Below are positions 19,389-61,423 of a stretch of DNA of 64,000 nucleotides, one piece after another. Positions within the stretch are counted from its first letter, which is position 1. Each line of letters opens with the position of its first letter. Position numbers and translations under genes: made by a program. The notes beneath the pieces are model-generated. The model worked only from the letters and a program-made list of their open reading frames with translations. It was not told where the DNA came from and ran no database searches. Origin of the DNA: Psammoneis japonica (taxonomy: Eukaryota); NCBI GenBank assembly GCA_008632985.1, contig QPGO01000095.1, forward strand, positions 245,681 to 309,680, given 5' to 3'.

Positions 19389-19887
19389 CAGTACATACAG
19401 TAGTTTCCTTTAGCACTTCTTCATGACGGCTTCGTCCTCCGGCAAAAAGGTTGGATCGAAGCCCTTATTTGTTTTCATTCCTAAGCAAACACGCGTTCAA
19501 CCTAGAGTAAATACTGTACTGATAAGAAAAGCGTTCTGACGAGGAAACTATTCTGTAGCCAGTAGAGACTGCTTTTATCAAAAAAAGGATTCCTATTCTT
19601 CGAATTTCGCACATCAATTCAAGCAGGTTTCCCGCGCTTTTTGCACGCGAGAGTGCGTTGATGCGCACGGGTTCACAAGGGGTGAAAACGACGACGGGGC
19701 TAACGTATTATTCAACGTGGAACTTTCAATTGCATCGATAGCAAGAAGTGCTTGTTCATAGTACTAAGTAACATTTCGATAACTCGAATAGAAGAGTCTC
19801 TGGCGGTTTCAAAAAGAGCTTAAAGAGATTGAAAGAAATTGACGCGTAGCAAGCAGTGTCGATTCTGTTTTTGTTTCTCCAGAAAAA

Positions 19888-21295
19888 ATGTCACGAACAA
19901 GCAGCAGTTCTCTCAATAGACGTCTCGAGTCTGAATTATACGAGAGCATTCAAAACCAAGATTGGGATTACACCGAAGAATTATTAGTGGAAGCTTCTGA
20001 GCTCCCCGTCGTACGACGAACCGCGGACAATACGCTTCTGCACTGTGCCACCGAACAAGAAGGAGTCCCACCCGACGTGATTCGAAAATTGTCGTCCGTC
20101 TTGCTAAGCTGGCAACGACACGCCACCAACAAGTGGGGTCTAACGCCTCTTCACAATGCCATTTTATTCAACAAAATCTCGACGTGATTTCTGTTTTGCT
20201 GGAAATTCACTTGGTGGCAATCGACATGGCGGACCGGAGCGGGCGGACACCCATGGACAATTTCTTCACGCGCTTGTTGGAACGTGAAGAAGAAGAAGAA
20301 GAGGACGAACATCCAGACGTGCTCAGTGAAGATCTAATTGGCATACTGCGACTTTTGACAAGAGCTTGGATGGAATACTACAAAACAAGTGGCTCGGGCA
20401 GACTATCGACTCCGCTTCATCGAGCACTGCAAGTTGCGTTTTTCACAAGGATTTACCCATGTCGGTGTTGAAGATCTGCTGGAAACAAGCCCGTCCATGG
20501 CACAAGTACAAGATGGCAATGGGTGCACACCACTCCACTTGGCTTCCAGACACGATGATCATAATGCAAATGAGCGGCTGCAGCTCTTGTTAAACGCGAC
20601 TCCAACAGTCGTCTTGGAATGGAGAGATGAAAACGGCCGAACACCCCTTTCCAGTGCTGTTTTTTTGGTTTGCCTCTCTGGAAATTTTTGAGACGCTTGT
20701 AGCTGCAAATCCGGCCAGCGTCTTCATTCCAGACAATGACAACAAGACACCACTCGACCTCGTGAGTGACTTGATTGCGAGAGAAATGGCTGTATCCGAG
20801 TATACCCTGAATGTTGCCGAGACGCTCGTCATGGGCCGCCGCAATTCCGACTCTGTATTGCGCAAGTCCATTCTCCTTGAGAATTGTCCTGTCGAGCTGG
20901 TGCGTGTGTTTCTCCGGGCTTTTCCACAACAAGCTCTGTGGAAGGACGAAAAGGGTAACCTTCCTCTCCACCTTGCAGCCACCTTGAAACCCAAACCACC
21001 TGAACTCGTTGCTTTTACGTCTCTGCTGAAAGAACTCGTTCAAGCCTTTCCAGCAGGACCAAAGACAACCAATGACGCTGGTCTCTTGCCACTGGCGTCC
21101 TTTATTTGTGCCGAGCGCAAGTGGAACGAAGGACTCGGGACAATCTTTCAAGCTCATCCAGCAGCCGTCATGGATCAGGGCTTGCCTCCATGTGCCGTGA
21201 CGCAGCTACTGTCCAAATTGGGCAAATGCTCAGACAACCCAACCGTTCTCTATCAATTGCTACAAGACGCTCCGTCTCTGGTCAGTCGAGTGTAG
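19888..21295 (+). CDS. Ankyrin-repeat protein, copy A, broken by several small indels (pseudogene or consensus errors)
   Basis: Collinear with the intact 35647-37071 copy (TLLH, TPLH, GNLPLHLAA), but split over four ORFs. Confidence 0.8.
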
Positions 21296-21376
21296 AATAA
21301 ACAGCATTATTTAGAGAGTAGAATCAAAAGCTGGCTACAACAGTTTTCAACACACATGTAGATTCCACATTCTTTT

Positions 21377-21630
21377 TATTTCTTGACTTCATTCTTCATG
21401 GCAAAGCTTTGCTTAAATTCTCTTGCACGCTTGAGTGCTTGGCTTCATTGTTTTTCCAAACCTCTGCCATGGCACAATCCATTGGATCATCAGGATTGGG
21501 CGCACTCAGCAGGGCTTGAATCGACAGAGCAACACGGTTCAAATCTGCAAGGCCAGTCTGCACTTGTCCATGAGAACATCCAAACAAAATCATCCAACTT
21601 GGATCACGTGGACACTCACAAACCACACCT
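21377..21630 (-). pseudogene. Decayed 3' fragment of UBC13, copy A
   Basis: [15 protein letters not shown]...AEVWKNNEA matches the gene at 54431-55035, with TA->CA and CG->CA/TG changes. Confidence 0.85.
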
Positions 21631-21894
21631 GCAACCAGCGTGTGGCCGCACATCCCATGTTCAGCCACACACCCCATGTCAAATCCTGCATCAGCAGTGC
21701 TTGTGGTGCCACTGCACACTCAGCAGCAACTGCAACAAACCCTGAAAGGCCACTCCAGTGACTTGTGCACCCTCATTGACAGCAGGGAAAGACTGGGCTG
21801 GAGCAAAGGGCAACAGCACAAAATGTTGGCATTTGGCATGAAGACACCACAAGTGCTCAAAGCTCAAAGGTTCTGCATGCCAGTGCAAGAGCAT

Positions 21895-22830
21895 CAGAAC
21901 ACAATTGCTGGCAATGAGTTTGCACTGCAGTTCTTGATGACTCAACAGACTCTTGAACAAAAGTTCTCTCTGTTGTTGTGAGGTTCTCATTTGCAAAAAG
22001 AGCTGCGGTGCCATCATGATCTCTGCAAACCCCTCAAAACTTCTTCTTGGGGGAACTCCATGAGAAATTGGCTCCAATGTTGCAGGGCTCACACACATTT
22101 TTCAAACAAATGTGCCATCCTTTTGTTGCTGTCATGCAGCCATTTTGATTGCCCTTGGAGTGCTGGCATGGGTCAGGCAGTCAATTTTTTTTTTCTTTCC
22201 AAAGTTGCAGCTGATGCTGGGTGAGCCAAGCAGCAAAGATGAGTCACAGGCAAAATCAGCCTCTGGGCAGACACAAGTGCTGGGGAGCCCTTTTCCAACA
22301 TGTGACTGGATTGGACATCACCAGCAGCTGGAATTCTCTTGCAGCATCAGCGCTGTCTGCCTGTTGGACTGTGGCACCACTTGGTGCTTTGAGCATCTCC
22401 AACAACCCAGTAAAACAAGAGCCGGCCTTGTTTTGGACTGTCTGCACTTTTGCACTTCGAGACATCTGTCAAGAGCCTCGCTGATGCAACGAGAGGCAGG
22501 AAAACAGCACATGGAGGCACAAGAATTGTGCTGCTGCTTTTGCAACAGTCTCACATGCAATTTGGGCAGTGGTTGTTGGCTGCAATTTCCCTGGCTTTTC
22601 GAAGACTCCAGCACATTCAAGACAGCACGAGCCAGCCCAGCTGACTGTGACAGCCAGCTTTGACATTTTTGCTTCCATGCTGACGGCTGGTGCAATCTCC
22701 TGCAAAAGGTTGGATCGAAACCCTTGTTTGTTTTGTTCCTGGCAAGCACGCGTTCAACCTCCAGCGAATGGCAAGAAGCGTTCTGACAAGGAAACTGTTC
22801 TGCATGCTCTGGCAGCCAGCAGGGCAAAAA
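21895..22830 (+). pseudogene. Hypermutated copy B of the small membrane-protein gene and its flanks
   Basis: Aligns to ~18720-19580 (AAILIALGVLAWVRQSIFFFFPK); TpA and CpG almost eliminated. Confidence 0.85.
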
Positions 22831-22857
22831 TTCCATGCTGCTGGAGTGTGCACTTGA

Positions 22858-25800
22858 TCAGCGCGAAGTGTGGAAGAAGAGGAAAACAGCGAGGGAAAAG
22901 AGAGAGAAGGGAACGAAAGAGAAAAGAAGAAGACAAGGAAAGAAATGAGGACATGACCTGAAACAGAGTTTGTGTGCTGTTTCATCTTGGCCTTTGTTGC
23001 ACACACCATGAGCATGTGGAGCCGTGCACCGGGGGTCGTGGCATTTCAGACACACCATTTTTGATCGTTTCTTGGTGGGAAAAAAGTCAGGCGGGAGAAA
23101 TCTCGGCAGTTGTTGGTGGTGAGGACACATGACAGGAAATGGGCATTGTTGACATTGGAATGGAATGAGTTGTGCCATGGGCAATGGTGCTGTCAAAAGT
23201 GTGGCGGAAGTTCTGGAAGCACACGCTCGTGCTGCAGCTTCTGCCTCGGGAGCCTCTGCCGCAGTTGCCGCCGCAGGAGCCTCTGCTGGCATGTCAACTG
23301 TAACTTGAGCTTCACCATCATTTGGATCTAGAGAGAATGATTCATCCTCTGGTTCTGGTGTTTTTTGCCTGTGCAGAGGTTCCGCTTGAAATGGCTTGGG
23401 AGCTCGAATGCCCTCGTTGCACTTCAACGCCTGCAGAGCTTCATCCTTTGCTGCTTCTCTAATTGCTGCAGATTTCTTAACATTGACTCGCCACTTTTTA
23501 TGGCAAGCAATCAAGTGACCAACATGCTTTGGAAATGTGGTGACTTCTTGACCCTTTTCCAACTGAGACGGGACCTTCACGAAGTCTCGACTCCAAATCT
23601 CACACATGATTTGAAATGTTTCTCGTGCATTGAGGGAGTGTCCATCTCAAATCAATCTTTCAAGCAGTGTCTTGAACAGCAGCCGCTCATTCTTGCAGGC
23701 AACTGGCGTGTGCGGCAGGTCTGAGTCCATCAAGCATGCCACAAATCGCCACGACGGCTTGAGCTCTTTGCACGGCTTGCCGTGCCGGTTGCCAGTTTCG
23801 ACGTGCGGCACCACGCCAAAAGGTGACCGTGTTGTTGCCACTCCTTCATCATGCGCTGCCCAACCAGTGCATTTGGGGCTTCCATGGATTCGTCGATGCA
23901 GCTCATTTTTTGTGTCTGCCAAAGAAGTGTCACAATGATGCATCTTCGGGAACCCGGGTCGGTGGTTCTCGGACGCACGCCAACTTTGCTGATGATGGTG
24001 ATTCAAAAGAACCGACACCGAGCATGTGGGTCCCGCACGGACTTGACCAAATGACCTCGTGCACTGCGAATGCCCCGACTCCGCTGCCCCAGCACCTCGG
24101 AAACAACGCCACAGCTGCAATCCATCTTTGTCGGTCTTTGGCTCACCACTCGCATCTAGAATGGGAGCATAGAAAGACACACCTTGAGGATCAGATGGCT
24201 CACCACGTGACAAAGCTTCAAGCACTCGATCAGCTTCAGCTCTAGCCTGCAAGTTGAACAGCGGCTTCTGAGTCTTTGAGTCCACCTTGTCTTGAAAATG
24301 CTCAAACACAACTTTAACTCGACTGCATGGGACATTTGAACGTGGCATGATTCTTCGGACTCGTTCAGCAACGTGGCCAAAGCTGTGGTTGACGGCTTGC
24401 TCCCATGTTTTCCCTTTCCTCGACAGCACTGCAGTCACTTCCTTTTTATCGTCGCAGTCATAGATGAACATTGCGTCTCGAAGAGCAGAAAAAAAGGCAG
24501 CTTTCCAATCATGATGAACAGGTGCCCTCACTCGTCTCATGAAATGGAAAGCATCACCCAGCACTCTTGATAAAATGTCTGCTTCATCGACTGCATCAGC
24601 AAGATTTACGGTGTCACTAACGTTTGATTGAGCTGCAAGCTCGTCGGCGGCATCAAGCAAAGATCGAACGACCCCGCCAATCGCGATTCGGTTTGTGTCC
24701 TGGATTGGTGTTAGGCTCTCTTCATCATCGACAGGAAACCGTTCCAGAATGGGAGGCATCTCCTCAGGGCTACAATCAATTTCCTCCTCATCAAGAATTA
24801 GATCCAAGCGTTCCAAAGATTTCTCATCAATGTCGATGGTAGACTCCCGGTCATTGTTGTCAGGCTTGTCGTCTGGCATCTCATTATTTTCAGGGCGAAA
24901 GGATTCTTCACCTTCGCCACACTCACAGTCAAACTGTTCGTTCAACGTTCTTTCTTCTCCTTGATTCGATTTTTCTCCATCATTTCCTCCTTGTCCACCA
25001 TCCGGCTCATTCCCGCCTCCTTCTTGTACACCAACACAATGCCGAAGACGTTTGTATTCTTCAACTATGACAACTGTCCCATCCGCAACCTTGGCAGCAT
25101 CTCGGAACGTTCGAAGATCACACGACCTTTGGTGCCGAATCTTGTGCTGAAGACCATTGCATTTACAACGCCTGTTCCCGACCTGTGTGAAGAGCAAGCA
25201 CGAGTCCGGCTTAAACACTTCTGTAACCTCCAGCAGAACTCTTGCGTCAGTGAGCTCTATTCCTGCTACCGTTCGGCCTGAAACCTGAATGATCCTACCC
25301 CGTGCAATCGGTTCCACACATGTCTTCCGGCATGGAAGAATCTCCACATCCAATCCCACTGCAAGCTCAGCTTTCATTAGACTAATAGAAAGATCTGGTA
25401 AATTTTTCAGAATCTCATATACTTGCGCACCTGCTTCGCAATCTCTAGAGCAATAGTGCAGAGCATCATCCGCTAGCTCCCCTGGTTTGTCCCAAATATC
25501 AGAAGTATGAAGAGCGGGCTTCGGCAGGAACCGCTTCAATAGAAGTGCCGAAAGTGCATCAAGCCCATACTGTCCCTTTGCATGTTGAACGAGTCCTCGG
25601 TACACCGCCATCAATCCGAGATTTCTCGAGTTCTTCATCACAAAACCAGCATGAGGGAAGTCCTTCTTCAGGGTAGTGAGATCATTCCTGATGTTGCTCC
25701 CAACAAAAATGATATCGTCACGTGACAAGAGACTTTGCAAGCGTGAAATAATCTCTTGCTTGTTTCGAATCTTCGCCAAATGAATCACGAGAACGTTGGG

Positions 25801-27557
25801 ATGTGCAATAGACCCAAGCGTGATAACCGAAGTGGTGTTCCTCGTGCCGTCCTGAAAGACACTATACTCAATGTCAAGAGAAATAGCACTGGTGGCATTG
25901 CTTTTCTGCACTTCATTTTCAAGGATATTTATTGCAGCAATGGCATTCTCACTCGAATCAAGGTACTCCGGCTTGCCTCGAAGTTCTATAATTGGAAGCT
26001 TGCCATTTTCAGCAGCAATCAAAGACTGCGTTGTACCAGATGCCCCCCGGCGTAGTGATTCTGAAGCTTCCTCGAGCATCCTTCGGTCTCGTGCTGGTGC
26101 ATCAGCAAAGGTGAAATCTGGATTGAAGCCTTGCGACACAAGCTGTGAAAATGCCGACTGAACCTCAACGTGATTGTCGGTAAGAGCAAAAAAGGCCATC
26201 ATGGATTCAAAGCACTCATTCTTTCCAGCAATCAAAGTCTCATACATCCGCTGCCCCTTCCAATTTGCTAGCCACTTTGGTACCTTATATGATGCATCGA
26301 GCGCCATAATCTTACTTGTACGCAACCGTCGAGCGTGCATGGAATCGATCCGGTCGCGGTTGTCCGTCGTGATCTTACAGTACATTTCGATCAATAACTT
26401 TTCACTTGGAACACGGCCACAAATATCATTTGAGTCATATTCCGGGAAAGGCTTGAGGTCCTGTACCAATGCCTTCCAGTTTGCATGGCCATCGGTGGGA
26501 AGAGGCTGATTGAGACGGTTCACCAAGAATTCGTCAAACAGCACCTCGCGACAATTGTGACAGTGCCATTGAATTATTTCTATGACCCCTGGAACAGCCG
26601 AAGGGCCCATTCCCTTATCAGCGCATTCAAGTGTCCATTCCATTAACATTTTGTCGACTCCGCTTCTCCAACCAAGGTAGCAAGGGAACAAATAGAACTC
26701 CCCAGGGAAATTCGCTTCCAATTGCGAGAGCACTGCCGGATGATGGGAGCTGAACGTGTACTGCCGCCTCTGGTCTTTTGGAGCGCCATTAGCTGCCTCG
26801 TTCCCATTTATCTTTTTACATTCGTGGCAGATCCATTGGATTGGCGAATTCAAAATGTAGTTCTTGGGCACACCATACACAAACCTGGGGTCGCGATCGT
26901 GGACGTTGATGCCAATGCAGCCCATGCCATTGCACCCCGATATGCATTTTGGTTTCCACCCAGGAATCATAATATCCGGTCGCCAATTAAAGACATCATA
27001 CTCGTAAAATAGCTTCCACGCGTCTCCAACAGTGTCAGGCGTTACGTCTCGTTGAGGAATGAAATCTTTTCCTTTTGACCATAGGAAGCCTCTCCTGACA
27101 TTTTTTGCAGCTTGATTCTGGTCAATATTTTCCATACATTCTCGAAGGATGCCAGAAAACTTGAAGTTATTCTCGTCGTTTTGCTCTGATGGATCCGTCG
27201 TCATGTTGTGCAGCATCCACCATGGCTGTGATTCTTGAGGAGCCTCAAATTCTGACGATTGACTTGCTTCGTCGTCGTTGTTGCTGTCATTCTGGATATC
27301 CCTACCCGCATCATCGACATTATTTTGAGCCGCTGAAGTAGTTGCCCCAACGTTCGCGTGCTCCTCTGGTGCTGCAGCATCGCATCGTCCATGCTGTCGT
27401 CGTCGTCGTCCGCGTTGTCGTTGTTGTTGTCGTTGTTGACGGGAACGAAATAGTTCGTTAAAACGTTGGAGCTAGACACTGGCGCCTTGCGGCGAGCAGC
27501 CATTACAGGAGCTCCAGCTCCAGCTCCAGCTCGTTTTCCGCCCCAACCGCCTGCCAT
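22858..27557 (-). pseudogene. Dada-type transposase with an embedded DEDDy 3'-5' exonuclease and terminal Zn fingers; frameshift ~27380, in-frame TGA at 23647-23649
   Basis: ALDASYK (D1), FADAP (D2), exonuclease (SLDIEY..GSNIRNDL..YGLDAL..HYCSRD), VLGDAFHFMRR (DxxH), RG...ESGH (E). N-terminal CxxC/CxxC and C-terminal CLKC...C. Start MAGGWGGKRAGAG at 27557. Confidence 0.75.
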
Positions 27558-27671
27558 TTTGATGACAACGAGTGGCCAAGAGAGAGGAATCTTTATCTCC
27601 CTCATTGGCAGAAAAGGGTTGCTCGCCTGATGGAGAGTAACGGTGGGAGAGACGACTCTATGGTAAAAAGA

Positions 27672-27896
27672 TGTCAACACAGTACGAACTCATGCGCGAT
27701 ACGCGCGCGCTACACTTGCGCATGCGATTTCCCGCCATCGGTCTTTTTCAACTTTTCTCACAATTACAACATCTAGTGTAACAAGACATTAGCAGCTTTA
27801 CCGATTATACTGTTATCGTTGGCCCTCTTCGCTAGCGATACATCTACTATTCGACTTCAGTCGACTTCTCCTAACTCTCAGACGAGAGTTGTCGCA
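27672..27896 (+). repeat. 5' LTR of the Copia element
   Basis: tgtcaacac...gagttgtcgca; ungapped match to 35027-35251 with 18 differences. Confidence 0.97.
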
Positions 27897-28009
27897 GGTT
27901 GGGAGCCCAAGTGTCGCGCTTGATCACTCCTGCGCTCATCTCTTTCTCTCCGGTGGACGAGAATTGAGCTCCGTACATTTCTACGTACAATTCTACGTGA
28001 GTGTTGCAC

Positions 28010-28385
28010 ATGTCCGAAAGGAACTCTGCGACACTTGACGACCTTGTTGAACAACTACAAGCCCTGCAACTGCAAGAAGTGGAGCTTGTTCGTCGCATTG
28101 CCGCAGAAAGAGAAAACGGCAGAATCGCCTCACTGCGCCAACGCGAGCCGGAACCGCTCGCACTTCTGCTTCAACCACACGAGAACCAACCATCGCGGAT
28201 TTTCGTGTGGGCGACCGAGCAGTTGTCATGAACGAAATTCGTAATTTTCGATGCTCCGTTGCCATCCAAGACCGTCAAGCAACTGTCACTCGCATTGCAG
28301 AACAACGAGTGCACATCCGCACGGATGACGGTAATTCAACGAACCGTCATCCAAAGAACCTGCGTTTTCTCGCGCAATTCGCATG
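28010..28385 (+). pseudogene. Small accessory ORF upstream of gag (coiled coil plus KOW/SH3-like barrel), frameshifted ~28200
   Basis: MSERNSATLDDLVEQLQALQLQEVELVRRIAAERE, then in a second frame FRVGDRAVVMNE...ATVTRIAEQRVHIRTDDGNSTNRHPKNL. Confidence 0.5.
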
Positions 28386-29867
28386 CCAAGCAAAGCAGCA
28401 AGCATTCCACTCCCTCCTTCTCCGCCAGCCAGCATGTCCGAGGTTGCCATCAACGGACGGAAGGTGAAAGTCCGCGCAACGCCGAAAGCGTCGCAAGACA
28501 CTCTTGCTGCTCTCTGCACTGGGGCGCAGAGGAACAGGTTGGATCCTGACAAGCTCAACGACCTCTTTCTGAAGGCGACTTCGAAACAGCAGACAAAATT
28601 TGACCTCCTCAATGTCAACATCAACGATCCTGACAAGCTCGAGGATGCTTGTGACCTCGCGATGTCAATCTCAACCATGCGTTCGAACCATGTTAAGTGC
28701 GACATGGATGACGTCTTCACCATCATCGACCCGGACAAATTCACGACGCGTGATCTTTACAAGGAACACTCCACGATCACTGCAGCAGAGGTTGCCGCAA
28801 GCAACAAATGGCATTCCACCATGCTCGAGGACCCCGATGGGACTTGGGCGAGCCAAAACCTTCGTCTTGCTCACGACTGCTTCGAGCGGAACGCGTCCGT
28901 CGCACTGCAGAAGAAAGTCAACGAGACGCACCTCAAATGTGACCAGGAGGAGCAGGGCAGACCTCTTTTCTTTGTTCTCATGATGAAACTCCTTCAGAGC
29001 AACTCCGAAGAGGCTGCTCGTTGTTTGGTTTCCAACACAACCAACCTCAAGATCACCGACTTCGATGGAGAAGACGTCAGTAAAGTCGTGTCTCTCATTC
29101 GCGGTGGCTGTTCTCGACTCGCCAATCTCCAGGATCAGAAAGGACAGTCTGTCATTCCCACTGATTTTCTGGAGAATCTTGCCAAAGTCTTTCAAATGTC
29201 GAGTGTCCCCGAGTTTAATTCTCTCTTTGAGCACCTCACCAAGGACTCCAAGACTTCCAAACTCAAGCAATCGGGCTCGATGACCGCTGCAATGACCACT
29301 GCGGTGGACGACATCCTGTCCTTCACCGAAGGCGAGCATCTCGCTCTTGTCTCCTCCAACAAGTGGTCCGGCGTGACTGCTGAGACACAGGCAACTTCGT
29401 TTGTTGCGGGTGTCGTCACTTGTTTTAACTGTGGCGGCCCTCATCCTTTGTGCGACTGCAAGAAACCGGTCGACAATGCTCGTGTTCGTGCCAACAAGAA
29501 GCCATTCTTCGATGCGAAACGGGCTCAGTGCAAGAACAACTCTTCAGGATCCTCCTCTTCCGGTCCCTCCACTAAGACCATTCCCAAGAAATGGCAGCCA
29601 CCGACTGAAGCAGAAAAGAACAATGACAATCGCCGCAACATCGATGGTGAGGATCATTGCTGCCATTGCAAAACCAAGCGCTGGTGCCCGGTGACTGAGA
29701 CGGGGAACGTTGCCTCCACTCCTGCCACTGCACCTTCTCCCGCTCCGGCCGCCACGCCTGCCCCGGCACCGGCCTCCGCTCCTGTCACGGATCGAGACCT
29801 CGCCATTGCCAACGCCAAGAAGGAGATGGTCGAAACCATGTCCGGCCTCTTCACCTCCTTCACCTGA
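28383..29867 (+). CDS. gag: Copia Gag (hypermutated)
   Basis: Zinc knuckle CFNCGGPHPLCDC; LKITDFDGEDVSKVVSLIRG; only one Tyr in 494 aa. Confidence 0.85.
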   Translation: MPSKAASIPLPPSPPASMSEVAINGRKVKVRATPKASQDTLAALCTGAQRNRLDPDKLNDLFLKATSKQQTKFDLLNVNINDPDKLEDACDLAMSISTMRSNHVKCDMDDVFTIIDPDKFTTRDLYKEHSTITAAEVAASNKWHSTMLEDPDGTWASQNLRLAHDCFERNASVALQKKVNETHLKCDQEEQGRPLFFVLMMKLLQSNSEEAARCLVSNTTNLKITDFDGEDVSKVVSLIRGGCSRLANLQDQKGQSVIPTDFLENLAKVFQMSSVPEFNSLFEHLTKDSKTSKLKQSGSMTAAMTTAVDDILSFTEGEHLALVSSNKWSGVTAETQATSFVAGVVTCFNCGGPHPLCDCKKPVDNARVRANKKPFFDAKRAQCKNNSSGSSSSGPSTKTIPKKWQPPTEAEKNNDNRRNIDGEDHCCHCKTKRWCPVTETGNVASTPATAPSPAPAATPAPAPASAPVTDRDLAIANAKKEMVETMSGLFTSFT

Positions 29868-29897
29868 AGCTTCGGGCGCGCCTCCTCTCCTGAGCGT

Positions 29898-32800
29898 GTG
29901 GCCCTCTCTTCTTGCTTTTTCAACCAACCGTCCAATCCTGGAAGGGACATCCAGGCTCATTTGTCGGTCGGCCACTTTTTGCTCCTATGGTTCACTCTCC
30001 AGATTCTTGGAGAGGGAGGGACCGAAGCAGTTTCGTCACTTTTTCAGTTGCTGTTTGTTTTGGCAGGTGGATGTTTGTTCTGCTTGCTTCTCTTTTCCAA
30101 GAATCCTTTGCTTTCATGCGACGATCCACCCGACTTTGTTGTTGTTCCTTCTACCGAACCGACCTCATTTCGTCGTCCTCCTGATCGAACTCGGATGACA
30201 CATCATTCTCAGGTACGCCGCTTGGATCGGCGCCCAGTTCGAATCCCACATAGAGACCCCTTGTGGTCCTTCCTTCATCCAACGACTTGGCGTAAACAGC
30301 GCCGAACACCTGTCCCGGACAGTGCAGCGATTGCTGATCCGGATCGCTCCTGTCGAAAATCCAAGTCGTGGAAACTTTCAAGATCGAGACGTCGATCCAA
30401 ACCCAGGAAACCGAAGCCACCTAGATTTGCCCACGTTGATCCTCAACAAGAGGCCGCAGAAGCCTGCGCTCAAATCAAGCACCGCCCATTGCATCTACCT
30501 TCCGAGATGTACGAATTTCCTCATGGTGCGACTCCAACTGATTTCATTGCTTTGCTTGATCCTCTCGGTGACTGCCTGAGGACCAAACCTCGCAGCTCCG
30601 CAACACGAACGGAGCCCTCACCTTTTGCACCTCCAGACGACCCTGAAGCTTCCGAACTAGAAGAGTTCTTCCGCATCAAACACCAACTGCTACACCAAAC
30701 ATGGATCATGTGCGACATGCAGTGCGGTTGTTCGTTAGACGAATTCGTTCAAGGCATCGATCCTTCAGAACAATTCCATTTGATCAAGACACTTGCCTCT
30801 TCCAAAATGTTGCGAGCTTGTGGTCAAGCACCGACACTCTCTTGCGTCACAACCAACTTGTCATGCACGACAACAGCAACCTTTACGAGTGGCTTTGGTG
30901 GAGCAGCTGTGTTCTCTCACCAGACCATGACAGGTCCATCTCACGTTGTTGCATCCGAGCCGGATCCACCATGGCTAACTGAAGATCCAACGCAGTGTGT
31001 CAAGTCCTTCAATGATGCAAGAGATCTCGAAGGCCACCAATGTCAAGCATTGACATCGTGCTCACCCATCGACGCACCTGTTGTTCTCGACACAGGAGCA
31101 TCTTCGTCACTCACACCTCACTCAAGTGACTTTGCAGGACCGCTGGAACCCGTTGATGCCACTGCCATCAACGGATTGTCTTCAAGCACCCGAGCAGTTG
31201 GTCAAGGTTTCATGGAATGGGACGCAATTGATTGTTGGAATGTCATCCGGACCATTCGAACGTGAGCCTGCTGTGTTCCTGATGCTTCCATTCGACTCTT
31301 CAGCCCTCAAGCACATTTTCAAGAGAATGGAAACCAAGGTGAATGTCTCGTACGAGGAAACAAAGCAACCCTCACTCTTCCGAAAGGGGATGCGCTCGAG
31401 TTCCCATGTGACAAGGAAAACAACTTGCCTTTCATGATGATGTCCGAACCAATCTCAGCCGGAGTCACCCAATGCAATTTGGCTCCCATCAGTGCCGAAG
31501 CACGCCTCACTTCGTTTCTTTCTGTCACTTCTCAGACCAATCAGAATCTAACACCCGGCCAGAAGGAGCTTCTTTTGCTCCATCAGAAACTTGGCCATGC
31601 CGGCTTCCAGCACATTCAATGCTTGTGTGCAATGCCACGGGATCCCACTAAATCCCACATTGTCAAGCCTTCAACCCAAGCCGTCTCCAGTTGCACCGCA
31701 CCTTCATGTGCTGCCTGTCAACTCGCAAAGCAGAAACAATGAACACCTGACCGTTGCGGCACCTCCAATCATCCGCCGTTGACTTTGCGACAGGGAGATT
31801 TGGCTCCTGGTCAACGCGTCTCCGTTGATCAGTGCATCAGCCGTGTCCCTGGCCGTCTTCCGACGTCCAAGGGACGCGAACCCAAGAAAGACAAGTGTTG
31901 TGGAGGCACGATTTTTGTTGATCATGCTTCTGCCTGCGTCCATCTGACCCATCAAGTTGGTCTCACCGCAGGTGAAACTGTTCGTGCCAAGCAATCCTTC
32001 GAGCAGCTTAGTGACCAATTTGGGGTCCGCATCAAGTCCCACCTTGCTGACAACGTCCCGTTTGGCACCAAGGCTTTCATGGATGACCTGGAAGAAAACA
32101 ACCAGACTGTTGATTTCTCTGGTGTTGGCACTCATCATCAGAACGGCACAGCCGAGCGCTCCATCCAAACAATCACCTCATGGGCACAAGCCATGCTCCT
32201 GCACGCCATTCTCATGTGGCCTGATGCCGCCAACCTGGAGTTGTGGCCTTTTGCCATGACCCATGCGACCCACTTGTGGAACCACATCCCAAAGTCTGAC
32301 ACTCGCACCGTGCCAGTCGAGATCTTCTCCAAGCAACGCTTTGACACCTGTGCACATCTACAGTGCTTACAAGTGTGGGGTTGCCCCACACATGTTCTTG
32401 ATCCTAAGTTACAAGATGGCAAGAAACTGCCTGAGTGGGACCCCAGGAGTCACCGTGGCCAACATCTCGGCATCTCACCGGATCATTCAACTAACATCGG
32501 CCTCATTCTGAATCTCTCGACAGGCCATGTTAGCCCTCAGCATCACGTGGTCTACGACAACCACTTTGCAACGGCACCCAACAGCGACTCTGGCAGTTTC
32601 TTCCAGGATGTTCCCTTCACTGCCGACCTTTGGGAATCCCTCCTCACCGCCGACTCGCTGGTGCACCATGCTCCGCCTGAGCCTTCCGCCACCGCCAATG
32701 ACCCTCACTGTCGCTTGCCGGCTTTGCACGATGATTGGTTAACACCCGCAGAGCGCCACCATTGCGCTAATCATCGACATGACCGCCGTCAACGTCATCT

Positions 32801-35006
32801 CCAAAACTCCAAAACGGCCCCTCCCACCGTCCTTCCTTCAACCTCTTCCGTCACAGCTCCAGAGGGAGAGCTTCCTACATTGCCCGAATCATCCACTGAC
32901 AATCTAGAATCTGCAACTTCAGAGGCTCCAGAGGGAGTCGAGATCGATGAGTTCAGCGACAACAGCGACAACGAATTGTCGCTTGTTGATCATCACGACT
33001 TGCCTGAAGACCTCGACCTGGGTCCTGCTGAAGCTGAGCCACCTCAACCGGCTCCGAATGCCACCACAACACCTGCTCGGACTCAAAGCGGTTGTTCCGT
33101 CAAGAAGCCGGAACGCTTGATTGAAGCTGTGCATGCCGACATCCGCATTCCGCCCAACGAGTTGCCGAATGCCTGCAAAAATCCCAAACGTGCCATCAAG
33201 TCGGAAACACTGAACAAACAGTTCTTGATGGCCCTGCGTTGGGATGGCGTCATGAATGCACTCCGGTCCAAAGATTTGCATGCAATGCTTGACCTTTTCA
33301 ACAAAAACACCAATCAAGTTCACGGAACACTCGAAGAAATGCACCCTCTTGCCCTCGCAGCGAATGCAAATTCTGCTGATAATCCAACTTGGGAAGAAGC
33401 AATGAATGGCCCTGATCGAGCAGCTTGTCTGAAAGCTTGCGACGTCAAAATCGATTCTCCAGTCAAAGGCAAGGACGCCTGGGAAGAAGTAGACCGCCAA
33501 GATTGGATGAACGTCTTACCATCCACTTGGGCCTTCAAGTGCAAACGACACCCCGATGGGTCGATCCACAAACACAAAGCCCGCTTTTGCGTCCGTGGAG
33601 ACAAGCAATTGGAAGGCATCGACCACTTTGACACCTTTGCTCCAGTTGTCAATTGGACGACCGTGTGGCTTGTGCTCACACTTTCTCAAATTTTGGAACT
33701 TTCGACAAAACAAGTTGATCATGTCACCGCTTTCGTCCATGCTCCAATTGACAAGGATCCCAAATGGGATGCCATGACACCCGAAGAGCGAGAACGCTCT
33801 GGCATCTTCGCACAAATGCCTCGCAGATGCACCAAGCCCGGCAAAGCACTGAAACTCAAACGGACCGTGTGTGGTCTCAAGCAAGGACCTCGCAACTTTT
33901 TCCTGCACCTCAAGTCAAAACTCAAAGACGCTGGATTTCAATCGCAAGACGATGTCGATCCGTGTCTGTTTGCATCCGACAAAGTCATCTGCCTCGTGTG
34001 TGTTGATGATGCACTGTTCTTCTCTCCGAAACAAGATTGTGTCGACGAAGTGATCGAGAAACTCAAAATTGATGGCGGTCTGGCCATCGAAGTTGAAGAT
34101 TCCGTCGCAGGTTTTTTGGGGGTCCACATCGAACGCGACACCGACAATGGTGCTGTCAAGCTCACTCAGAGCGGTCCATCCAAACGTGTCGTCGAAGCCC
34201 TCAACATGGGCCATCCACCAAAGGCCCGAACGCCCACACTGGCCACTCCGTTGGCCAAGGACACCAATGGAGACCCACCAAATGGAGCCTGTAATTGTGC
34301 CAGTGTGGTTGGCATGCTCCAACATCTCCAAGGCCATTCTGGGCCAGACATTGCCTGCGCCGTTAGCTCAGCAGCCAGATTTGTTCATGGCCCTTGTCGC
34401 TCACATGAACTGGCCCTTGAATGGATGGGTCGACACCTGAAGGGCACTCTGGATGAAGGCCCAATCCTCAAGCCATCTGGGGACTTCAACATTGACGTGT
34501 TTGTTGACTCAGATTTTGCTGGACTGTGGCCGCACGAAGACAAGCATGACCCGGCTTGTGTCAAAAGCCGAACAGGATTTGTCGTTTGCATTTCCAACTG
34601 TCCTGTCATTTGGTCCAGTGAGCTTGCACCTGAGATTGCTCTCTCAACAATGGAAGCAGAGCACAGTGCTCTTTCCACTTGCATGAAAACTGTCCTTCCC
34701 TTTCCACGCACTGCACAAGCCATCTCTCAAGGCGCTGGAGTTGGTCCAGGAACTGCCAAGACCACACACACTGCTGTGTGGGAGGACAATGTTGGGGCTT
34801 TGACTCTGGCTGACATGGAACCTGGCCGAGTTACGCCCAGGTCCAAGCACTGCGCAATCAAGTGTCATTGGCTCCGTTCACAGCTCAAACCAAATCGAGT
34901 TGCTGTGTCCAAGATCGCAGCAGACTTGCAACGCGCTGATGTTCTGACCAAAGGTCTTATCACGGTTAAATTCAAGGCCACTCGAAAGTTGCTTTGCGGT
35001 TGGCAG
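29898..35006 (+). pseudogene. pol: Copia Pol (protease, integrase, RT, RNase H), inactivated
   Basis: VVLDTGAS protease; HQKLGH...CAAC; QNGTAER integrase; CLVCVDD RT; DSDFAG/QRADVLTK RNase H. In-frame TGA at 31263 and 31740. The expected terminal stop after LCGW reads CAG (35004-35006). Confidence 0.93.
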
Positions 35007-35026
35007 CTTCTTCGTTCGAGAGGGAG

Positions 35027-35251
35027 TGTCAACACAGCACGAACTCATGCGCCATGCGTGTGCGCTGCACTTGCACACGCGATTTCCCGCCATCGGTCTT
35101 TTTCAACTTTTCTCACAATTGCAACATCCAGTGTAACAAGACATCAGCAGCTTTGCCGATCATGCTGTCATCGTTGGCCCTCTTCGCTAGCGATGCATCT
35201 ACTGTTCGACTTCAGTCGACTTCTCCTAACTCTCAGACGAGAGTTATCGCA
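35027..35251 (+). repeat. 3' LTR of the Copia element
   Basis: Follows the PPT; ends tatcgCA, followed by TSD AAAGA. Confidence 0.97.
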
Positions 35252-35646
35252 AAAGACAGCCAAATAGAAAGCACTGCGACGTCAGCTATAACATAGAGTG
35301 TGCTAATTAAAACGCACTGCGCGCAATCCCTCTCCATCAGCATAGCATGTTGACCGCCAGCCTGGCGCACAAATGCGAGACTACCTACCGGCGGATGCGC
35401 GCCCGCGCGTGCGTTGATGCGGTCGTGCCAACGAAAAACATCCACAAAACGACAACGGGCAAGGTGGGTGTATTATTCAACGTGTCACTTTCAATTGCAT
35501 ATCGATAGCAAGAAGTGCTTGTTCATAGTACTAAACAACACTTCGATAGCTCGAATAGAAGTTGAGTCTCTGGTGGTTTCCACAAAAGCTGAAAGATTGA
35601 AAGAAATTGTAGCAAGCAGTTTTGATTCTTCTTTAGGTTTTCAAAA

Positions 35647-37071
35647 ATGTCACGAACAAGCAGTTCTCTGAATAGACGTCTCGAGTCTGAATTGTACGAG
35701 AGCATCCAAAACCATGATTGGGATTACGCCGAAGAATTATTAGTGGAAGCTTCGGAGCTCCCCGTCGTTCGACGAACCGGCGACAATACTCTTTTGCACT
35801 TTGCCACCGAACAAGAAGGAGTCCCACCCGACGTGATTCGAAATTTGTCGTCCGTCTTGAGCTGGCAACAGCAATATGCGACTAACAAGTGGGGTAAGAC
35901 GCCCCTTCACAATGCTATTTTATTCAAACAGAATTTCGAGGTGATTTCTGTTTTGCTGGAAATTCACTTGGTTGCAATCGACATGGCGGACTGTAGGGGG
36001 CTTAAAAGGGGGTGGACACCCGTGGATTACTTTTTTACGCGGTTGTTGGAACGTGAAGAAGAGGATGACGAACAGCCAGACGTGCTCACGGAAGATCTAG
36101 CTGCCATGCTGCGACTTTTGACAAGAGCTTGGATGGAATACTACAAAACAAGTGGCTTGGAAAGACTTTCGACTCCGCTTCATCGAGCAGTCCAATTTGC
36201 GTCTTCATACGAGGATTTGCCATTGTCGGTTTTGAAGATTCTGCTGGAAACATGCCCGTCCATGGTACAAGTACAAGACAGCAATGGTTGTACACCACTC
36301 CACTTGGCTTCCAGACGCGATGGTGCAAATGCAAATGAGCGACTGAAGCTCTTGCTGAACGTGACTCCCGCAGCCGTTTTGGAATCCCGGGATAAAAACG
36401 GCCGAACACCCCTTTCCAGCGCTCTCTTTTGGGTTGCCTCTCTGGAAATCTTCGAGACACTGGTTGCTGCAAATTCGGCCAGCATTTTCATTCCAGACAA
36501 GAGCAACAAGACACCGCTCGACCGTGTGAGTGGCCGGATTGCAAACGACGAGAGTGCTGTAGTATCCGACTATTACCTGAATGTTGCCAAGACGCTCGTC
36601 ATGGGCCGCCGCTGCAATTCCGACTCTGTTTTATTGCGCAAGTCCATTCTCCTTGAGAAATGTCCTGTCGAGTTGGTACGTGTGTTTCTCCGGGTTTTTC
36701 CACAACAAGCTCTGTGGAAGGACGAAAAGGGTAACCTTCCTCTCCACCTTGCAGCCACCGTGAAACCCAAACCACCTGAACTCGTTGCTTTTACGTCTCT
36801 GCTGAAAGAACTCATTCAAGCCTTTCCAGCAGGACCAAAGACAACCAATGACGCTGGTCTCTTGCCACTGGCATCCTTTATTTGTGCCGAGCGCAAGTGG
36901 AATGAAGGACTTGAGACAATCTTGCAAGCTCATCCAGCAGCCGTCATGGATCAACACTTGCCTCCATGTGCCGTGACGCAGCTACTGTCCAAATTGGGCA
37001 AACGCTCAGAAAATCCAACCGTTCTTTATCAATTGCTACAAGAGGCTCCGTCTCTTGTCAGTCGAGTGTAG
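35647..37071 (+). CDS. Ankyrin-repeat protein, copy B (intact, 474 aa)
   Basis: Uninterrupted ORF with GDNTLLHFA, GKTPLHNAI, GCTPLHLAS, GRTPLSSAL, GNLPLHLAA; normal Tyr/TpA content. Confidence 0.9.
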   Translation: MSRTSSSLNRRLESELYESIQNHDWDYAEELLVEASELPVVRRTGDNTLLHFATEQEGVPPDVIRNLSSVLSWQQQYATNKWGKTPLHNAILFKQNFEVISVLLEIHLVAIDMADCRGLKRGWTPVDYFFTRLLEREEEDDEQPDVLTEDLAAMLRLLTRAWMEYYKTSGLERLSTPLHRAVQFASSYEDLPLSVLKILLETCPSMVQVQDSNGCTPLHLASRRDGANANERLKLLLNVTPAAVLESRDKNGRTPLSSALFWVASLEIFETLVAANSASIFIPDKSNKTPLDRVSGRIANDESAVVSDYYLNVAKTLVMGRRCNSDSVLLRKSILLEKCPVELVRVFLRVFPQQALWKDEKGNLPLHLAATVKPKPPELVAFTSLLKELIQAFPAGPKTTNDAGLLPLASFICAERKWNEGLETILQAHPAAVMDQHLPPCAVTQLLSKLGKRSENPTVLYQLLQEAPSLVSRV

Positions 37072-37146
37072 AATAAGCATAATTTAGATTAGAATGAAGC
37101 TGGCTACAACAGTTTTCAACATGTTGTAGATTCCACATTTTTCTTT

Positions 37147-37338
37147 TTATTTCTAGACTTCATTCTTCATGGCAAAGCTTTGTATAAATTCTCTTGCACA
37201 CTTGAGAGCTTCAGTTTCATTGTTTCTCAACCTCCACCGTGGCATTGTCCAGTGGATGATTGGGATTGGGTGCACTCAGCAGGGCTTGAACAAACAGCAG
37301 CATGGTTCGCTGCAAAGCTGGACTCCACTTGTCCTTGA
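37147..37338 (-). pseudogene. Decayed 3' fragment of UBC13, copy B, truncated by a LINE
   Basis: Aligns to 54431-54625; homology ends at ccacttgtccttga (~37338). Confidence 0.8.
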
Positions 37339-37339
37339 T

Positions 37340-40300
37340 TGAGCAGCACAGAGCGGGTGGTGCAGACACATGTTGGGGGGAGAAGAGGCAATCAAAGGGT
37401 GATGGAAAAGAAAGGATTCATGGGCAGAAAGATGGTTGGAGAGAGCCAGTTCAATGTTGAGGCTAAGGAGTTGAGCAGCCTAGATTGGCAGGTGGAGCAG
37501 AAGCAAGATGGTTGAGGGACAGTTGGTGTTTCCAGGCAGCATCATCATGGAGAAGCAGGTTGCTGAAGGCAAGGAGTGAGGGTTGGAAAGCAGAGCAGGA
37601 CACTTGGGAGTCAGAAAAATTAGCAGGAGAAGTCCAAGGTGGTTTGGGTGGAAGGGGTGGGAGGGAAGCAGAAGCAGTGTGGGAGTGGCCACAAAGGAAA
37701 GCATGGAGGCAGCACCCAATGCCACACAGGTGGTCAAGGGTGAGTGGAGGGAGGAAAACACCAGCTTGGTTGATGGAGGAGTCAACAGAAGAGCCACATG
37801 AGGAGGGAGTGTCATGACCAAGGAGCTTGTCTTGAATGCTGCTGAGGCAAGCCTTGGACAAGAGGTTGGCAGAGGGGCAGGCAAACCAGGTGCATGCTGC
37901 TGAGGGGGGGCTGGGGGCTCAGGTGCTGCAATGTTGACAGTGACAAAGTTGTGCACAGACACCAGGGAGGGGCAGAGCCAGTGGCAAGATGGGCACCAAC
38001 ATCAGCGGGCTGCTTCAATGGGAAATCAGGGAGGAGGCCAACGGGCTTGAGGAAGATGTGCTGTGCAGAGCAGCAGAGGCCTGACAGGGCATCAAGGGTT
38101 TGACAATGGCACAAATGGTGTCACACATGTGATTGGAAAGAGGACCTTTGTGCATCTTGGAGCAGGCAAGGGCATGACTGCCACAGGGGTCAAGGGTGCA
38201 GCAACCACATGTGGGCGGGGCAGTTGGCAAAGATTGGGAGGGACAACAGGGAGGCAGAGGTTTTGGAGAAGGAGGAGGAGAGGAGGTGGAGGAGGAGGAG
38301 TGCACTGTGCTTGAAGAACAAGCACAAAGGAAAGTGGAACAAATCACAAAAAGTGGAAATCATGAGATTGCATTTTACACTGTGATTTTGGGATTCTCTG
38401 AAGGAGTTCTCAATGGCCTGAAGCTGTTGCACTGCTCCCACAGAGCAAAGGCCTTTTGGAGAATCTAATCATGACAACAGATTGTCTGGATGCAATCAGC
38501 ATTGACATCTCATGTGTCAACATTGTCTGTTGATTGCATTTGCAACCTCAGACTTCCGATCAATTCTGTGTGATCAACCTGAAAATTGCACACATCCAAG
38601 CACAATTTCATCTGCTTGACAATGTGTGCTGCATCCACCTCCCTGTTTTCTGGGTTGTCTGATGCACTGAAAGCCTTTGGCACAACACAGCAATCTGTTG
38701 AGAGTTGACTGACATGCAAAGTCATTTGTCAAATGGAGTTGTTTGATGGACGGACATTGACAGTGTCAATGACATTGCCACGTTTGATCTGTGCTGTGCC
38801 ACTGGCATGCACAGTTGTTGTGATGCAAGGCCCAACACAGGGCTGTTCTAATTTTTGAAAATCTTTCTCCCAGAGAGCAGGATCTTCTCTCCCACTCTGC
38901 ATGTGTGTGGAGTGCATTGTGCATTCTCTCTGGCATCATTTTCATTTGTTGCATCTTGTTTGAATTTCTGGACAAACTTTCAGTCAGCAATGTGTTGGAT
39001 GCTGAAGATCATTTCTCTGCCAAAGACCAATTGTCCTGGCACAGCTTGCACAGCAGCATGACAAGTCAAACGTGCAGTGCTGCAAAGGCTGTTGCTGATG
39101 GCATTCCCTCAAACAGATTCTGAGCATCCAGAGGTGCATGTTGCAAATCAAATGTGCACAGCATGTTGCCCAGCACTTGATGCACCCGCTCAGTTGTGGC
39201 ATTTGATGACAGATTTCATGCAGTTGTGGGGGCTTGCATTTAATGCCACAATTGTCTTGGACCATTGTTCCAAATTGATGTCCAATGAGCTCACTTCCAT
39301 GATCACAAGTGATCAACAATGGCCAAGGACATCTGCTTGATCATGTTCTTTCCAGCCATCCACCAGTGACGGTTGTGGATTCCTCATTTGGAATTTCCAT
39401 TGCTTCAAACCATCCTGTTGCTGGACCTGCCATTGTTGGACATGGGGGTTTCTTTTTGCTCTTCTGATGCATTTTGCATGCTCCAATGAGATCCACACAC
39501 AGTCTTTCCTGTGGCACCGCTTTGCACAATTGGGAGGTAAATGTCCACACTTCTTCTTTTGTTTCTTCTTGAACTTTTGGCATGTCTCACATTTTGACAC
39601 GCATTTTTGTGTGTCATCATGCAAGGTGGGCCACCACAAGTGTTGTGAGGCTGTTTCTTCAGCTCTGTTTGTGCCAGGGTGCAACAAGTGCGTGTGATGC
39701 CAATTGGTCACAGACTTTTGCAATGTCTTTGTTGCAACAATTTTGTCCTTGTGACATGTGAGCAACCGGTCTTGCTCACCTCCACAAAAAGTCTTTGCAT
39801 GACATGTTGCATCTGACAATTTAGAGAGAATGTCTTTGTCCCATTTTTGTTCAGTGTCAAGAACTTTGTGTGTCAACAGAAAGACATTGTTGCAAGATTT
39901 GGGTGCAACCTCATCAGCCAGTTCATCGTTGCTGAGGTTTTCAAATGGCTCAATTTTCTTCATGGCAAGTCAGCTGATTGTGTCTGCAATGACATGTTTG
40001 CCTTGCCCTTGAGGCACGTCATTTTGGAATGATGTTCTTCTGTCACAAGTGACCAATGCATGACTCTGTTGGTTGTGAAGTTCTTGTGGGCAAGATTCTT
40101 GTGATCCGTGCATTTGTCAATCTGTTGGCCAAACAGCACATTCTAGAATTCCTCAAGTGTTTCCGCCATGGACAGAAGTTCTTTTTCCATTGCAGTGCAG
40201 CATGTCTGTGCTCCATTTAACTTGCACTGTGAAAAGCAACAGGTCTGCTGTTCTGCATCATGACCACTCCCAGTTGAGAATTGCTCATGCCGGCATGTGT

Positions 40301-61422: not shown

Positions 61423-61423
61423 N

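Follow-up and report, generated by a model that had tools for sequence, protein, structure and literature searches.

Hypermutation restricted to a single dinucleotide step, TpA, has recently been measured in the nuclear genome of the chlorarachniophyte alga Bigelowiella natans, through Illumina sequencing of mutation-accumulation lines (Mettrop et al., bioRxiv 10.64898/2026.01.13.699255, 2026 preprint). According to this preprint, 231 of 302 nuclear single-nucleotide mutations fell within integrated giant-virus and virophage regions, and all but one of these (230) were A>G or T>C changes, each of them at TpA. The rate in these regions is given as about 6e-7 per site per generation, ~1000-fold above that in the rest of the genome, and hypermutation was found in some lines only. 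The preprint further reports that TpA-poor coding sequences of B. natans are enriched for reverse transcriptase, endonuclease-reverse transcriptase and DDE domains, and its authors propose an adenine deaminase as the agent, naming an ADAT2-like candidate (bioRxiv 10.64898/2026.01.13.699255). Here we describe a comparable signature in a stretch of 64,000 nucleotides from the diatom Psammoneis japonica (assembly GCA_008632985.1, contig QPGO01000095.1, positions 245,681 to 309,680 of the forward strand; 'the window' below, with positions counted from its first letter). It centres on a Copia-type long terminal repeat (LTR) retrotransposon at 27672-35251 and extends to other mobile elements of the window. 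The sequence probably records a real mutational process that acts on chromosomal DNA after insertion and, on either strand, replaces the A:T pair at the A of TpA by G:C. The original prediction for this DNA, made from its letters, had already proposed hypermutation of this kind and regarded it as undescribed in eukaryotes; the measurements in B. natans overturn the second point.

The dinucleotide composition of the window is strongly uneven. The observed/expected ratio (O/E) of TpA is 0.34 over the whole window and, in 1-kb windows, falls to 0.00-0.11 in five blocks versus 0.45-0.87 in gene-like DNA. Within the same blocks the O/E of TG and CA rises to 1.3-2.4, while CpG in gene-like DNA stands at about 0.8-1.2. 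When counted per 250 nt, the edges of the blocks are sharp to within a few hundred bases. Overall counts were taken from 21500-24100, 28050-35130, 37300-46200, 48260-53500 and 59000-64000 for the blocks (28,825 nt) and from 1-20000, 46300-48200 and 54300-58900 for gene-like DNA (26,502 nt). The blocks hold 124 TA (4.3/kb), with CG at 24.9/kb, TG at 106.8/kb and CA at 102.8/kb, compared with 1045 TA (39.4/kb), CG at 57.3/kb, TG at 69.6/kb and CA at 72.9/kb in gene-like DNA. The TpA depletion of the blocks is real and far beyond chance. Four of the blocks are also depleted of CpG, and the Copia element has normal CpG.

The Copia element is complete, with LTRs of 225 nt (Table 1), and these provide the most direct evidence for the direction of change. 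The two LTRs of one retrotransposon are identical at insertion. In this pair there are 18 differences, of which 17 are transitions and 13 involve TpA; the remaining differences comprise four at CpG and one transversion. At 12 of the TpA differences the 5' LTR has TA and the 3' LTR has TG (seven) or CA (five), and one is the reverse. Thus, ancestral TpA sites were changed at one of 17 positions in the 5' LTR versus 12 of 17 in the 3' LTR (p=2.3e-4), which indicates that the change came after insertion and depended on position, not on sequence. Outside TpA and CpG the LTRs have barely diverged (one difference), yet most TpA of the element has been lost. Changed sites in the 3' LTR extend no further than 35204, and TA is plentiful again in the flank from 35265 on. 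The original prediction had drawn the depletion across all of 27672-35251; this stands for the interior and for the 3' LTR up to 35204, and fails for the 5' LTR (27672-27896) and ~160 nt after it.

These LTRs bear on an explanation by editing before integration, in which an ADAR-like enzyme acting on element RNA, or a deaminase acting on complementary DNA (cDNA), would produce mutated copies that are then inserted. Most of the affected sequences are retroelements, as such a route would have it. Identical LTRs would be expected, however, and the present pair disagrees at 13 TpA sites. The two strands are affected to a similar extent, the changes in the tails of host genes and in an adjacent open reading frame (ORF) depend on where these lie, and a 3' G, which ADAR favours, is disfavoured here. 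The preprint on B. natans notes that ADAR on double-stranded RNA gives A>G with a preference for 5' U, in keeping with editing of RNA, although the targets that it describes are integrated DNA viruses (bioRxiv 10.64898/2026.01.13.699255). Taken together, editing before integration is exceedingly improbable.

Proteins encoded by the element carry the same signature. The Pol frame was aligned with the 40 best-scoring of 120 listed relatives, and columns were used if a residue was present in 30 or more sequences and agreement reached 70%. At the 21 columns with conserved Tyr, Pol has Tyr at one, Cys at 11, His at eight and Phe at one, so that 20 of 21 are replaced; at other conserved columns the residue is kept in 464 of 557 (Fisher p=2.7e-14 for the contrast with Tyr). 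In the comparison of Pol with its relatives, inferred A>G changes at codon position 1 are preceded by T in 14 of 19 cases, and inferred T>C changes at codon position 2 are followed by A in seven of nine. Tyr makes up 0.09% of Pol versus a median of 2.8% in the 120 relatives (at most 58% identity), and Cys and His are raised. Both strands are hit, as seen from seven TG and five CA in the LTRs and from 11 Cys and eight His at the Tyr columns.

Much of what had been predicted for these proteins was borne out. The Tyr sites are changed to Cys or His as described, and the Gag and Pol frames have the single Tyr claimed for each, which is also the number in each of the three stop-to-stop frames of gag-pol; the Pol frame, put at 1162 residues, proved to be 1174 residues long from stop to stop (31743-35267), with its RVT_2 domain at residues 579-833 (Pfam). 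The motif CLVCVDD was located at 33990, with its TGT codon at 33999, and motifs cited from unrelated elements were found as EACVDD at 60571, ICTDSSDCQMG at 61014, KHWGCSQ at 49902 (minus strand) and SSHWAEACG at 62775 (minus strand). Host genes keep their Tyr, as had been stated: gene-like ORFs contain 0.6-4.3%, versus 0-1 Tyr residues in each of 11 other long frames from the blocks. Altogether, the LTRs, outgroups and repeat copies agree with the claim of an A:T>G:C change specific to TpA that yields TG and CA, falls on unrelated mobile elements and spares genes.

A process of this type cannot create stop codons, and it is shown to kill elements by missense changes, namely Tyr to Cys/His, Ile to Val/Thr, Leu to Pro, and Val or Thr to Ala. 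The gag-pol frame contains only three internal stops, all TGA (29865, 31263 and 31740). Because only TGA stops are possible in TpA-free DNA, long open frames are found there on both strands. This has practical consequences, in that gene finders would over-call genes in such blocks, dead elements can look intact, and the proteins of TpA-hypermutated elements score poorly against domain models. In four of the blocks, five of 67 ORFs of at least 110 residues had a Pfam match, four of them element-type and one ankyrin.

Related elements provide an outgroup at the level of DNA. The best 80 of 483 metagenome loci were examined, and 35 near-full-length sequences were used for Pol composition; the set is biased, as one of the two search patterns demanded intact Tyr. 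The TpA O/E of Pol is 0.11 versus a median of 0.59 in these 35 relatives (standard deviation 0.08, minimum 0.45). Per kilobase, going from the relatives to Pol, TA drops from 39 to 6, TG rises from 69 to 84 and CA from 73 to 98, and CG stays level at 50-51. This young Copia element has therefore lost about 84% of its TpA, and its CpG is not reduced relative to the relatives. An alternative without any mutator is that these families avoid TA through intrinsic composition or selection, for instance by codon usage or to escape a nuclease or restriction-like site. TpA is indeed under-represented in most genomes, and the host DNA here is itself at an O/E of 0.45-0.87. However, such avoidance has virtually no chance of being the explanation: catalytic Tyr residues that are otherwise invariant have been exchanged, the LTR pair of a single insertion is no longer alike, an unmutated repeat copy lies 2-25 kb away, 35 of 35 relatives have normal TpA, and host sequence is affected only where it adjoins a block. 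Among other candidates, GC-biased gene conversion was rejected, being neither TpA-specific nor saturating.

The unmutated repeat copy, U, serves as the 'before' state for two copies in blocks, M1 and M2, to which it is about 70-75% identical. The 29 TA sites of U are CA at 12 and TG at nine positions in M1, and its 31 TA sites compared with M2 are CA at 17 and TG at 12; TA is retained at none in either copy. For CG sites of U the outcomes in M1 (34 sites) are CA 10, TG eight and CG eight, and in M2 (35 sites) TG 13, CA 12 and CG five. Three-way parsimony among U, M1 and M2 was uninformative for TpA, M1 and M2 being saturated so that the inferred ancestor is never TA. M1 and M2 share 20 mutated TpA sites and agree in outcome at 13 of them, and runs tests in the two copies found no clustering of TG or CA outcomes at TpA sites. 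A double mismatch of TG versus CA is the largest specific class of difference between repeats in saturated blocks (9, 6 and 4 in three pairs), as predicted if a palindromic step is resolved independently in each copy. On the evidence of these alignments, each copy is shown to have been mutated independently, site by site and in place.

The possibility of a base-calling or assembly artefact, in which TA would be the true sequence and a modified base in it would be miscalled as G or C, was considered using read data. The stretch is present in three runs of one sample, possibly the assembly's own source data, and their library type is not recorded, which leaves room for such an error. In one run, X1, a fraction of 0.47 of the sampled 31-letter words is present and, of its 924 aligned contigs, 231 are at least 99% alike; on single-copy flanks it gives contigs with 0 differences at an even word depth of about 30, and the longest record reaches 315 kb. 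Such exact contigs at even depth would not be obtained from noisy long reads, and X1 carries the TA-poor sequence. The Copia family is multi-copy, with a word depth in X1 of 330-980 versus about 30 on the flanks, and differences to sister copies are mainly transitions (211 A>G, 249 G>A, and 265 each of C>T and T>C), with 22-56 for each type of transversion. In the 40 best-supported differences, which were used for site calls, sister copies show TA where this Copia has TG or CA (30432, 34011 and 34941), the opposite resolution of TG and CA (29180/1, 29753/4 and 34763/4), and CG where this Copia has TG or CA at 11 places in the element. One read set thus shows both states at homologous sites, unlike a miscall of a modified base, and TG and CA alternate site by site without the strand runs expected of a strand-specific miscall in the consensus. 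The signature is also seen in a separate assembly (P0296, below), and an identical one arose de novo in the Illumina-sequenced lines of B. natans (bioRxiv 10.64898/2026.01.13.699255). An artefact, for which the original prediction had asked that reads be checked, is accordingly very improbable.

As a separate observation, an X1 contig at a depth of about 30 links 27657 and 35251 across six intervening letters and looks like a Copia-empty site. In its flank, TA sites of the window (27082, 27595 and beside the insertion site) appear as TG or CA, and the CG of the window at 27624 appears as TG. This contig could represent the other allele or a paralog, and the Copia insertion may be polymorphic.

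The sequence context of the mutated sites was analyzed in a set of 83 polarised sites, consisting of 14 from the LTR alignment, 50 from U versus M1 and M2, and 19 from Tyr codons; two of the 14 LTR-alignment sites come from non-homologous flanks and are not valid members. Every TpA offers two adenines, one per strand. At 39 of 50 informative sites the adenine with a 3' pyrimidine was mutated over that with a 3' purine (p=9e-5), and in contests between 3' bases C wins 28 of 39 and G wins eight of 25. The TpA that survive in the blocks agree with this: 70 of 124 (56%) are YTAR, where Y is pyrimidine and R purine, versus 17% of the 1045 host TpA (p=1.5e-20), and five of 124 (4%) are RTAY versus 27% in host DNA. 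Relative to host density, survival is 0.027 for TAT, 0.066 for TAC, 0.14 for TAG and 0.24 for TAA. In the sites compared, the mutated A is thereby shown to precede a pyrimidine preferentially (TAY) and survivors to be mostly YTAR, a context that is new here.

Neighbouring DNA shows how far the process reaches. An ankyrin-repeat gene is present in three copies, A (19900-21573), B (35659-37338) and C (53149-54640), which are spaced by 15.8 and 17.3 kb and share 82-86% identity. A mutated block adjoins each copy, and the copies enter the blocks at different ends. The tail of copy A and the homologous tail of copy B (37186-37338) have lost CG and TA that are kept by copy C (54470-54640, outside the block). 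Depletion in A and B sets in at homologous points, the last TA lying at 21414 and 37185, ~115-120 nt past the stop codons, and TG and CA outcomes in the tails differ between the two copies. A minus-strand ORF at 23647-27471 encodes 1274 residues, with a 3'-5' exonuclease domain (PF01612) as its sole recognised domain; His and Cys are abundant in its final 175 residues, and it may belong to the host or to a large mobile element. Toward the 3' end of this ORF TpA declines over some 1.5-2 kb, starting at about 12 per 300 nt and reaching 0, and CpG remains level. At several borders TpA depletion extends beyond CpG depletion. The process is shown to stay within the domains of mobile elements and the nearest few hundred to 2000 bases, with near saturation inside those domains.

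The older blocks have also lost CpG, to an O/E of 0.09-0.3, and the polarity CG to TG/CA was confirmed against repeat copy U and ankyrin copy C. This loss is probably due to deamination of methylated cytosine, and it leaves the loss of TpA unexplained, as it cannot convert TA to TG or CA. The two processes are separable because the young Copia element shows full TpA loss with CpG unchanged; in this element the TpA process has been far faster than ordinary divergence or CpG decay. Loss of CpG and TpA together in the old blocks is what might be expected of error-prone repair synthesis, in which a polymerase-eta-like enzyme misinserts G opposite T at WA motifs (W being A or T) in repair patches, since methylated or deaminated C lesions could trigger such patches. 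In the A:T phase of antibody hypermutation polymerase eta acts at WA motifs, and A>G at T-A is its hottest error context. Nevertheless, this route is distinctly improbable: the young Copia lost its TpA without CpG loss, so that no cytosine lesion trigger is evident, the specificity for TpA is very high, with one transversion as the only LTR difference outside TpA and CpG, and ApA is not clearly raised above CpA in the old copies.

Further features were noted for CpG itself. Across 21500-23000, 37300-46200, 48500-53200 and 59000-64000, surviving CpG have a 5' T at a fraction of 0.21 versus 0.31 in host DNA, and a 5' G at 0.31 versus 0.22 (chi-square p=4e-6); this scarcity of 5' T implies that TCG was lost fastest. 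Loss of TCG first differs from the usual ranking for spontaneous deamination of 5-methylcytosine. In M2 the outcomes at former CpG lie in long runs of TG or CA (seven runs versus 13.5 expected). The CpG loss may thus be something other than plain spontaneous deamination.

Features of the window are collected in Table 1. Other parts of the gene-like DNA carry trypsin, fructose-bisphosphatase, ubiquitin and ankyrin genes (Pfam). For the fructose-bisphosphatase, the best named relatives come from diatoms (Odontella, Nitzschia, Chaetoceros and Coscinodiscus) with up to 76% identity, and the best match without a name has 82%. This places the host among the diatoms, with no closely related sequenced species in that collection. 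At the right edge of one mutated block, a tandem array at 45552-46227 contains three to four units of ~190 nt that are 67-92% alike.

Table 1. Positions of the Copia element, the other TpA-poor blocks and associated features in the window.
Feature	Position	Strand	Remarks
Repeat copy U	18700-19570		Unmutated, in gene-like DNA
TpA-free block	21415-24157		CpG lost too at 21400-23000; contains repeat copy M1 (21890-22830)
Ankyrin copy A, tail	21415-21573	+	Inside block
Target-site duplication AAAGA	27667-27671 and 35252-35256		5 bp, read from sequence
5' LTR	27672-27896	+	TG...CA ends; essentially unmutated, 16 TpA
Leader	27897-28056	+	TpA kept at 27974, 27982, 27986, 27994 and 28056; depletion only further on
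gag-pol frame	28335-35264	+	Single frame, 2310 codons; TpA O/E about 0.12
TGT (Cys) codon	33999-34001	+	YVDD Tyr site of reverse transcriptase; Tyr in 40/40 relatives
Polypurine tract GAGAGGGAG	35018-35026	+	Directly 5' of 3' LTR; read from sequence
3' LTR	35027-35251	+	Changed sites extend to 35204
Block without TpA and CpG	37186-46222		Contains repeat copy M2 (43720-44630)
Gypsy-type integrase and RNase H remains	39316-40582	-	Within block 37186-46222; Pfam
Block without TpA and CpG	48209-53567		Extends into left part of ankyrin copy C (53149-53560)
Block without TpA and CpG	58970-64000		Cut by end of window
Gypsy-type reverse transcriptase and RNase H	60439-61277	+	Within block 58970-64000

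The signature is not restricted to this window. Among 383 Copia-type Pol relatives retrieved, one (P0296) has Tyr below 0.5%. It lies on an 8.5-kb contig of a separate public assembly, is 34% identical to the Pol of the window, and has one Tyr in 2061 residues; at 25 conserved Tyr columns it has Cys at 10, His at four, Phe at five and Tyr at none. A similar near-Tyr-free Copia polyprotein with Cys or His at Tyr columns, P0343, was found in a separate public assembly (34-37% identity for P0296 and P0343). The signature is thus present in at least one further Copia lineage and data set. A viral_contigs scan found no relatives of P0296. In another Copia Pol, P0161 from a public Logan assembly, the 25 conserved Tyr columns include Phe at 13, Tyr at seven and His at two; this may represent a live element that sheds TpA by changing Tyr to Phe (TAY to TTY), in the manner of an escape.

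The attacked base may be A or T, and the process may be a dedicated defence. As a tentative model, rated somewhat below an even chance, the agent would be a nuclear enzyme of the deaminase fold that converts A to inosine in transiently single-stranded DNA, the inosine being copied as G at the next replication. Such an enzyme would be recruited to a silenced or transcribed element domain and not to a sequence. The affected zone of the Copia element, from ~160 nt past the 5' LTR to inside the 3' LTR, would fit a transcription unit minus its first part, and a lag past the transcript start would resemble antibody hypermutation. No deaminase-type domain was found by Pfam in the long ORFs of the window, in line with the statement in the original prediction that no gene for the enzyme lies here. 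Amphioxus ADAT2 has been reported to act on DNA, where it deaminates A as well as C, the latter preferentially in TCG (PMC10354150).

Attack on thymine was also considered. By this route a TET/JBP-type dioxygenase, or oxidative damage, would convert T in TpA to 5-hydroxymethyluracil (5hmU) or 5-formyluracil, which mispairs with G and gives T>C. A-attack and T-attack cannot be separated from sequence, the context R-T-A being the mirror image of T-A-Y. On the other hand, 5hmU pairs mostly with A, and near-saturation would need a strongly mutagenic derivative. In dinoflagellates 5hmU is reported to mark repeats and mobile elements, although base-resolution mapping in Breviolum, as described in the same source, revealed no sequence motif for it (PMC11071213). 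Overall, the thymine route appears rather unlikely.

Several points weigh against the reading of a real TpA-directed process on inserted DNA, or against the adenine deaminase model of it. Independence from the sequencing platform is deduced from the accuracy of the X1 contigs only, and X1 comes from one sample that is possibly the source of the assembly. There is no robust strand bias in the element: O/E favours TG on the sense strand, and raw counts compared with the 35 relatives favour CA. The match to a transcription unit would derive from one element with an unmapped start site, and the spared 5' LTR may instead reflect a chimeric assembly, or gene conversion, where this LTR meets the interior of the element. 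Paralog counts are small, with TA-class changes in ankyrin copy C at three of 11 sites inside the block versus three of 32 outside. In the best 80 of 483 metagenome loci there is no 1-kb stretch with TpA O/E below 0.28; these 80 loci without the signature, along with the single low-Tyr Pol among 383, imply that the process is not general among diatom-like Copia elements. Furthermore, ADAT2 of amphioxus, the only eukaryotic ADAT2 tested on DNA according to the source consulted, prefers GAA and not TA (PMC10354150).

A wider proposal, possible though on the doubtful side, is that diatoms and chlorarachniophytes share a mitotic defence by adenine deamination at T-A-Y, a mirror image of fungal repeat-induced point mutation (RIP), as an ancient immune module of the SAR group (stramenopiles, alveolates and rhizarians). 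If true, targeting would come from an element's own transcription or silencing marks and not from its sequence, both strands of a transcription unit would be edited from about 150-200 nt past its start, Tyr codons would be erased without stops being made, and a natural DNA adenine editor would exist. We know of no natural enzyme that edits adenine in chromosomal DNA as a defence. If confirmed, these findings would point towards an A:T-directed mutational genome defence in diatoms and one rhizarian alga, which may be widespread in major marine phytoplankton. The diatom case, being saturated on ordinary retrotransposons, offers a clean system for finding the enzyme. Models of the enzyme and its targeting are constrained by the T-A-Y preference, the spared 5' LTR, the border shared beside active genes, and the coupling with CpG loss.

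Comparison with known systems places the window closest to B. natans. ADAR and APOBEC3 likewise provide enzymatic hypermutation against viruses and retroelements, and ADAR favours 5' U; they act before integration on RNA or minus-strand cDNA and on one strand, whereas the process here affects both strands of integrated DNA, leaves the LTRs of an insertion different and hits flanking host DNA. For the tRNA deaminases TadA and ADAT2-ADAT3, the first of which is also the source of adenine base editors, the natural substrate A34 always follows U33, and the target of TadA is U-A-C-G. A U33-A34 preference would explain the requirement for T-A, and the UAC target would fit TAC; these enzymes need single-stranded or loop substrates. 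Deamination of 5-methylcytosine is matched by the old blocks in their CG to TG/CA changes, and TA to TG/CA is beyond its reach.

RIP resembles the process described here in being a transition hypermutation that riddles mobile elements with sharp borders, leaks slightly to neighbours and destroys coding capacity. In direction it is the opposite, as the original prediction held and as polarisation by LTRs, outgroups and paralogs bears out: RIP changes C:G to T:A, mostly CpA to TpA, and makes TpA and stops, whereas here TpA is destroyed and no stops arise. RIP requires duplicated DNA and a premeiotic stage. With regard to a trigger by duplication, copy U is unmutated at about 70-75% identity, two identical LTRs fared differently, and the Copia family is multi-copy. 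As for the stage, the B. natans process runs in mitotic lines (bioRxiv 10.64898/2026.01.13.699255).

In full-text searches of the literature no report of TpA hypermutation in diatoms was found, and only the B. natans preprint surfaced. The window shares with B. natans substitutions that are almost only A>G or T>C (TG or CA replaces the TA of U at 21 of 29 sites in M1 and at 29 of 31 in M2), hits on TpA of either strand, and restriction to mobile or foreign DNA at a local rate far above background. We infer that the process is the same as the TpA-only hypermutation of B. natans. The differences lie in the host, a diatom (stramenopile) and not a chlorarachniophyte (rhizarian), in the targets, here LTR retrotransposons and other repeats, and in the frequent coupling with CpG loss; moreover, the signature is deduced from sequence here and was measured in lines there. 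It is also nearer saturation, with a TpA O/E of 0.00-0.12 versus 0.45 in the B. natans virus region, and it reveals a T-A-Y preference and a spared 5' LTR, while the main text of the preprint gives no trinucleotide context and makes no mention of diatoms (bioRxiv 10.64898/2026.01.13.699255). The window therefore belongs with the same recently recognized kind of hypermutation, for which B. natans is the sole earlier report, and extends it to a new supergroup lineage and to retrotransposons at saturation.

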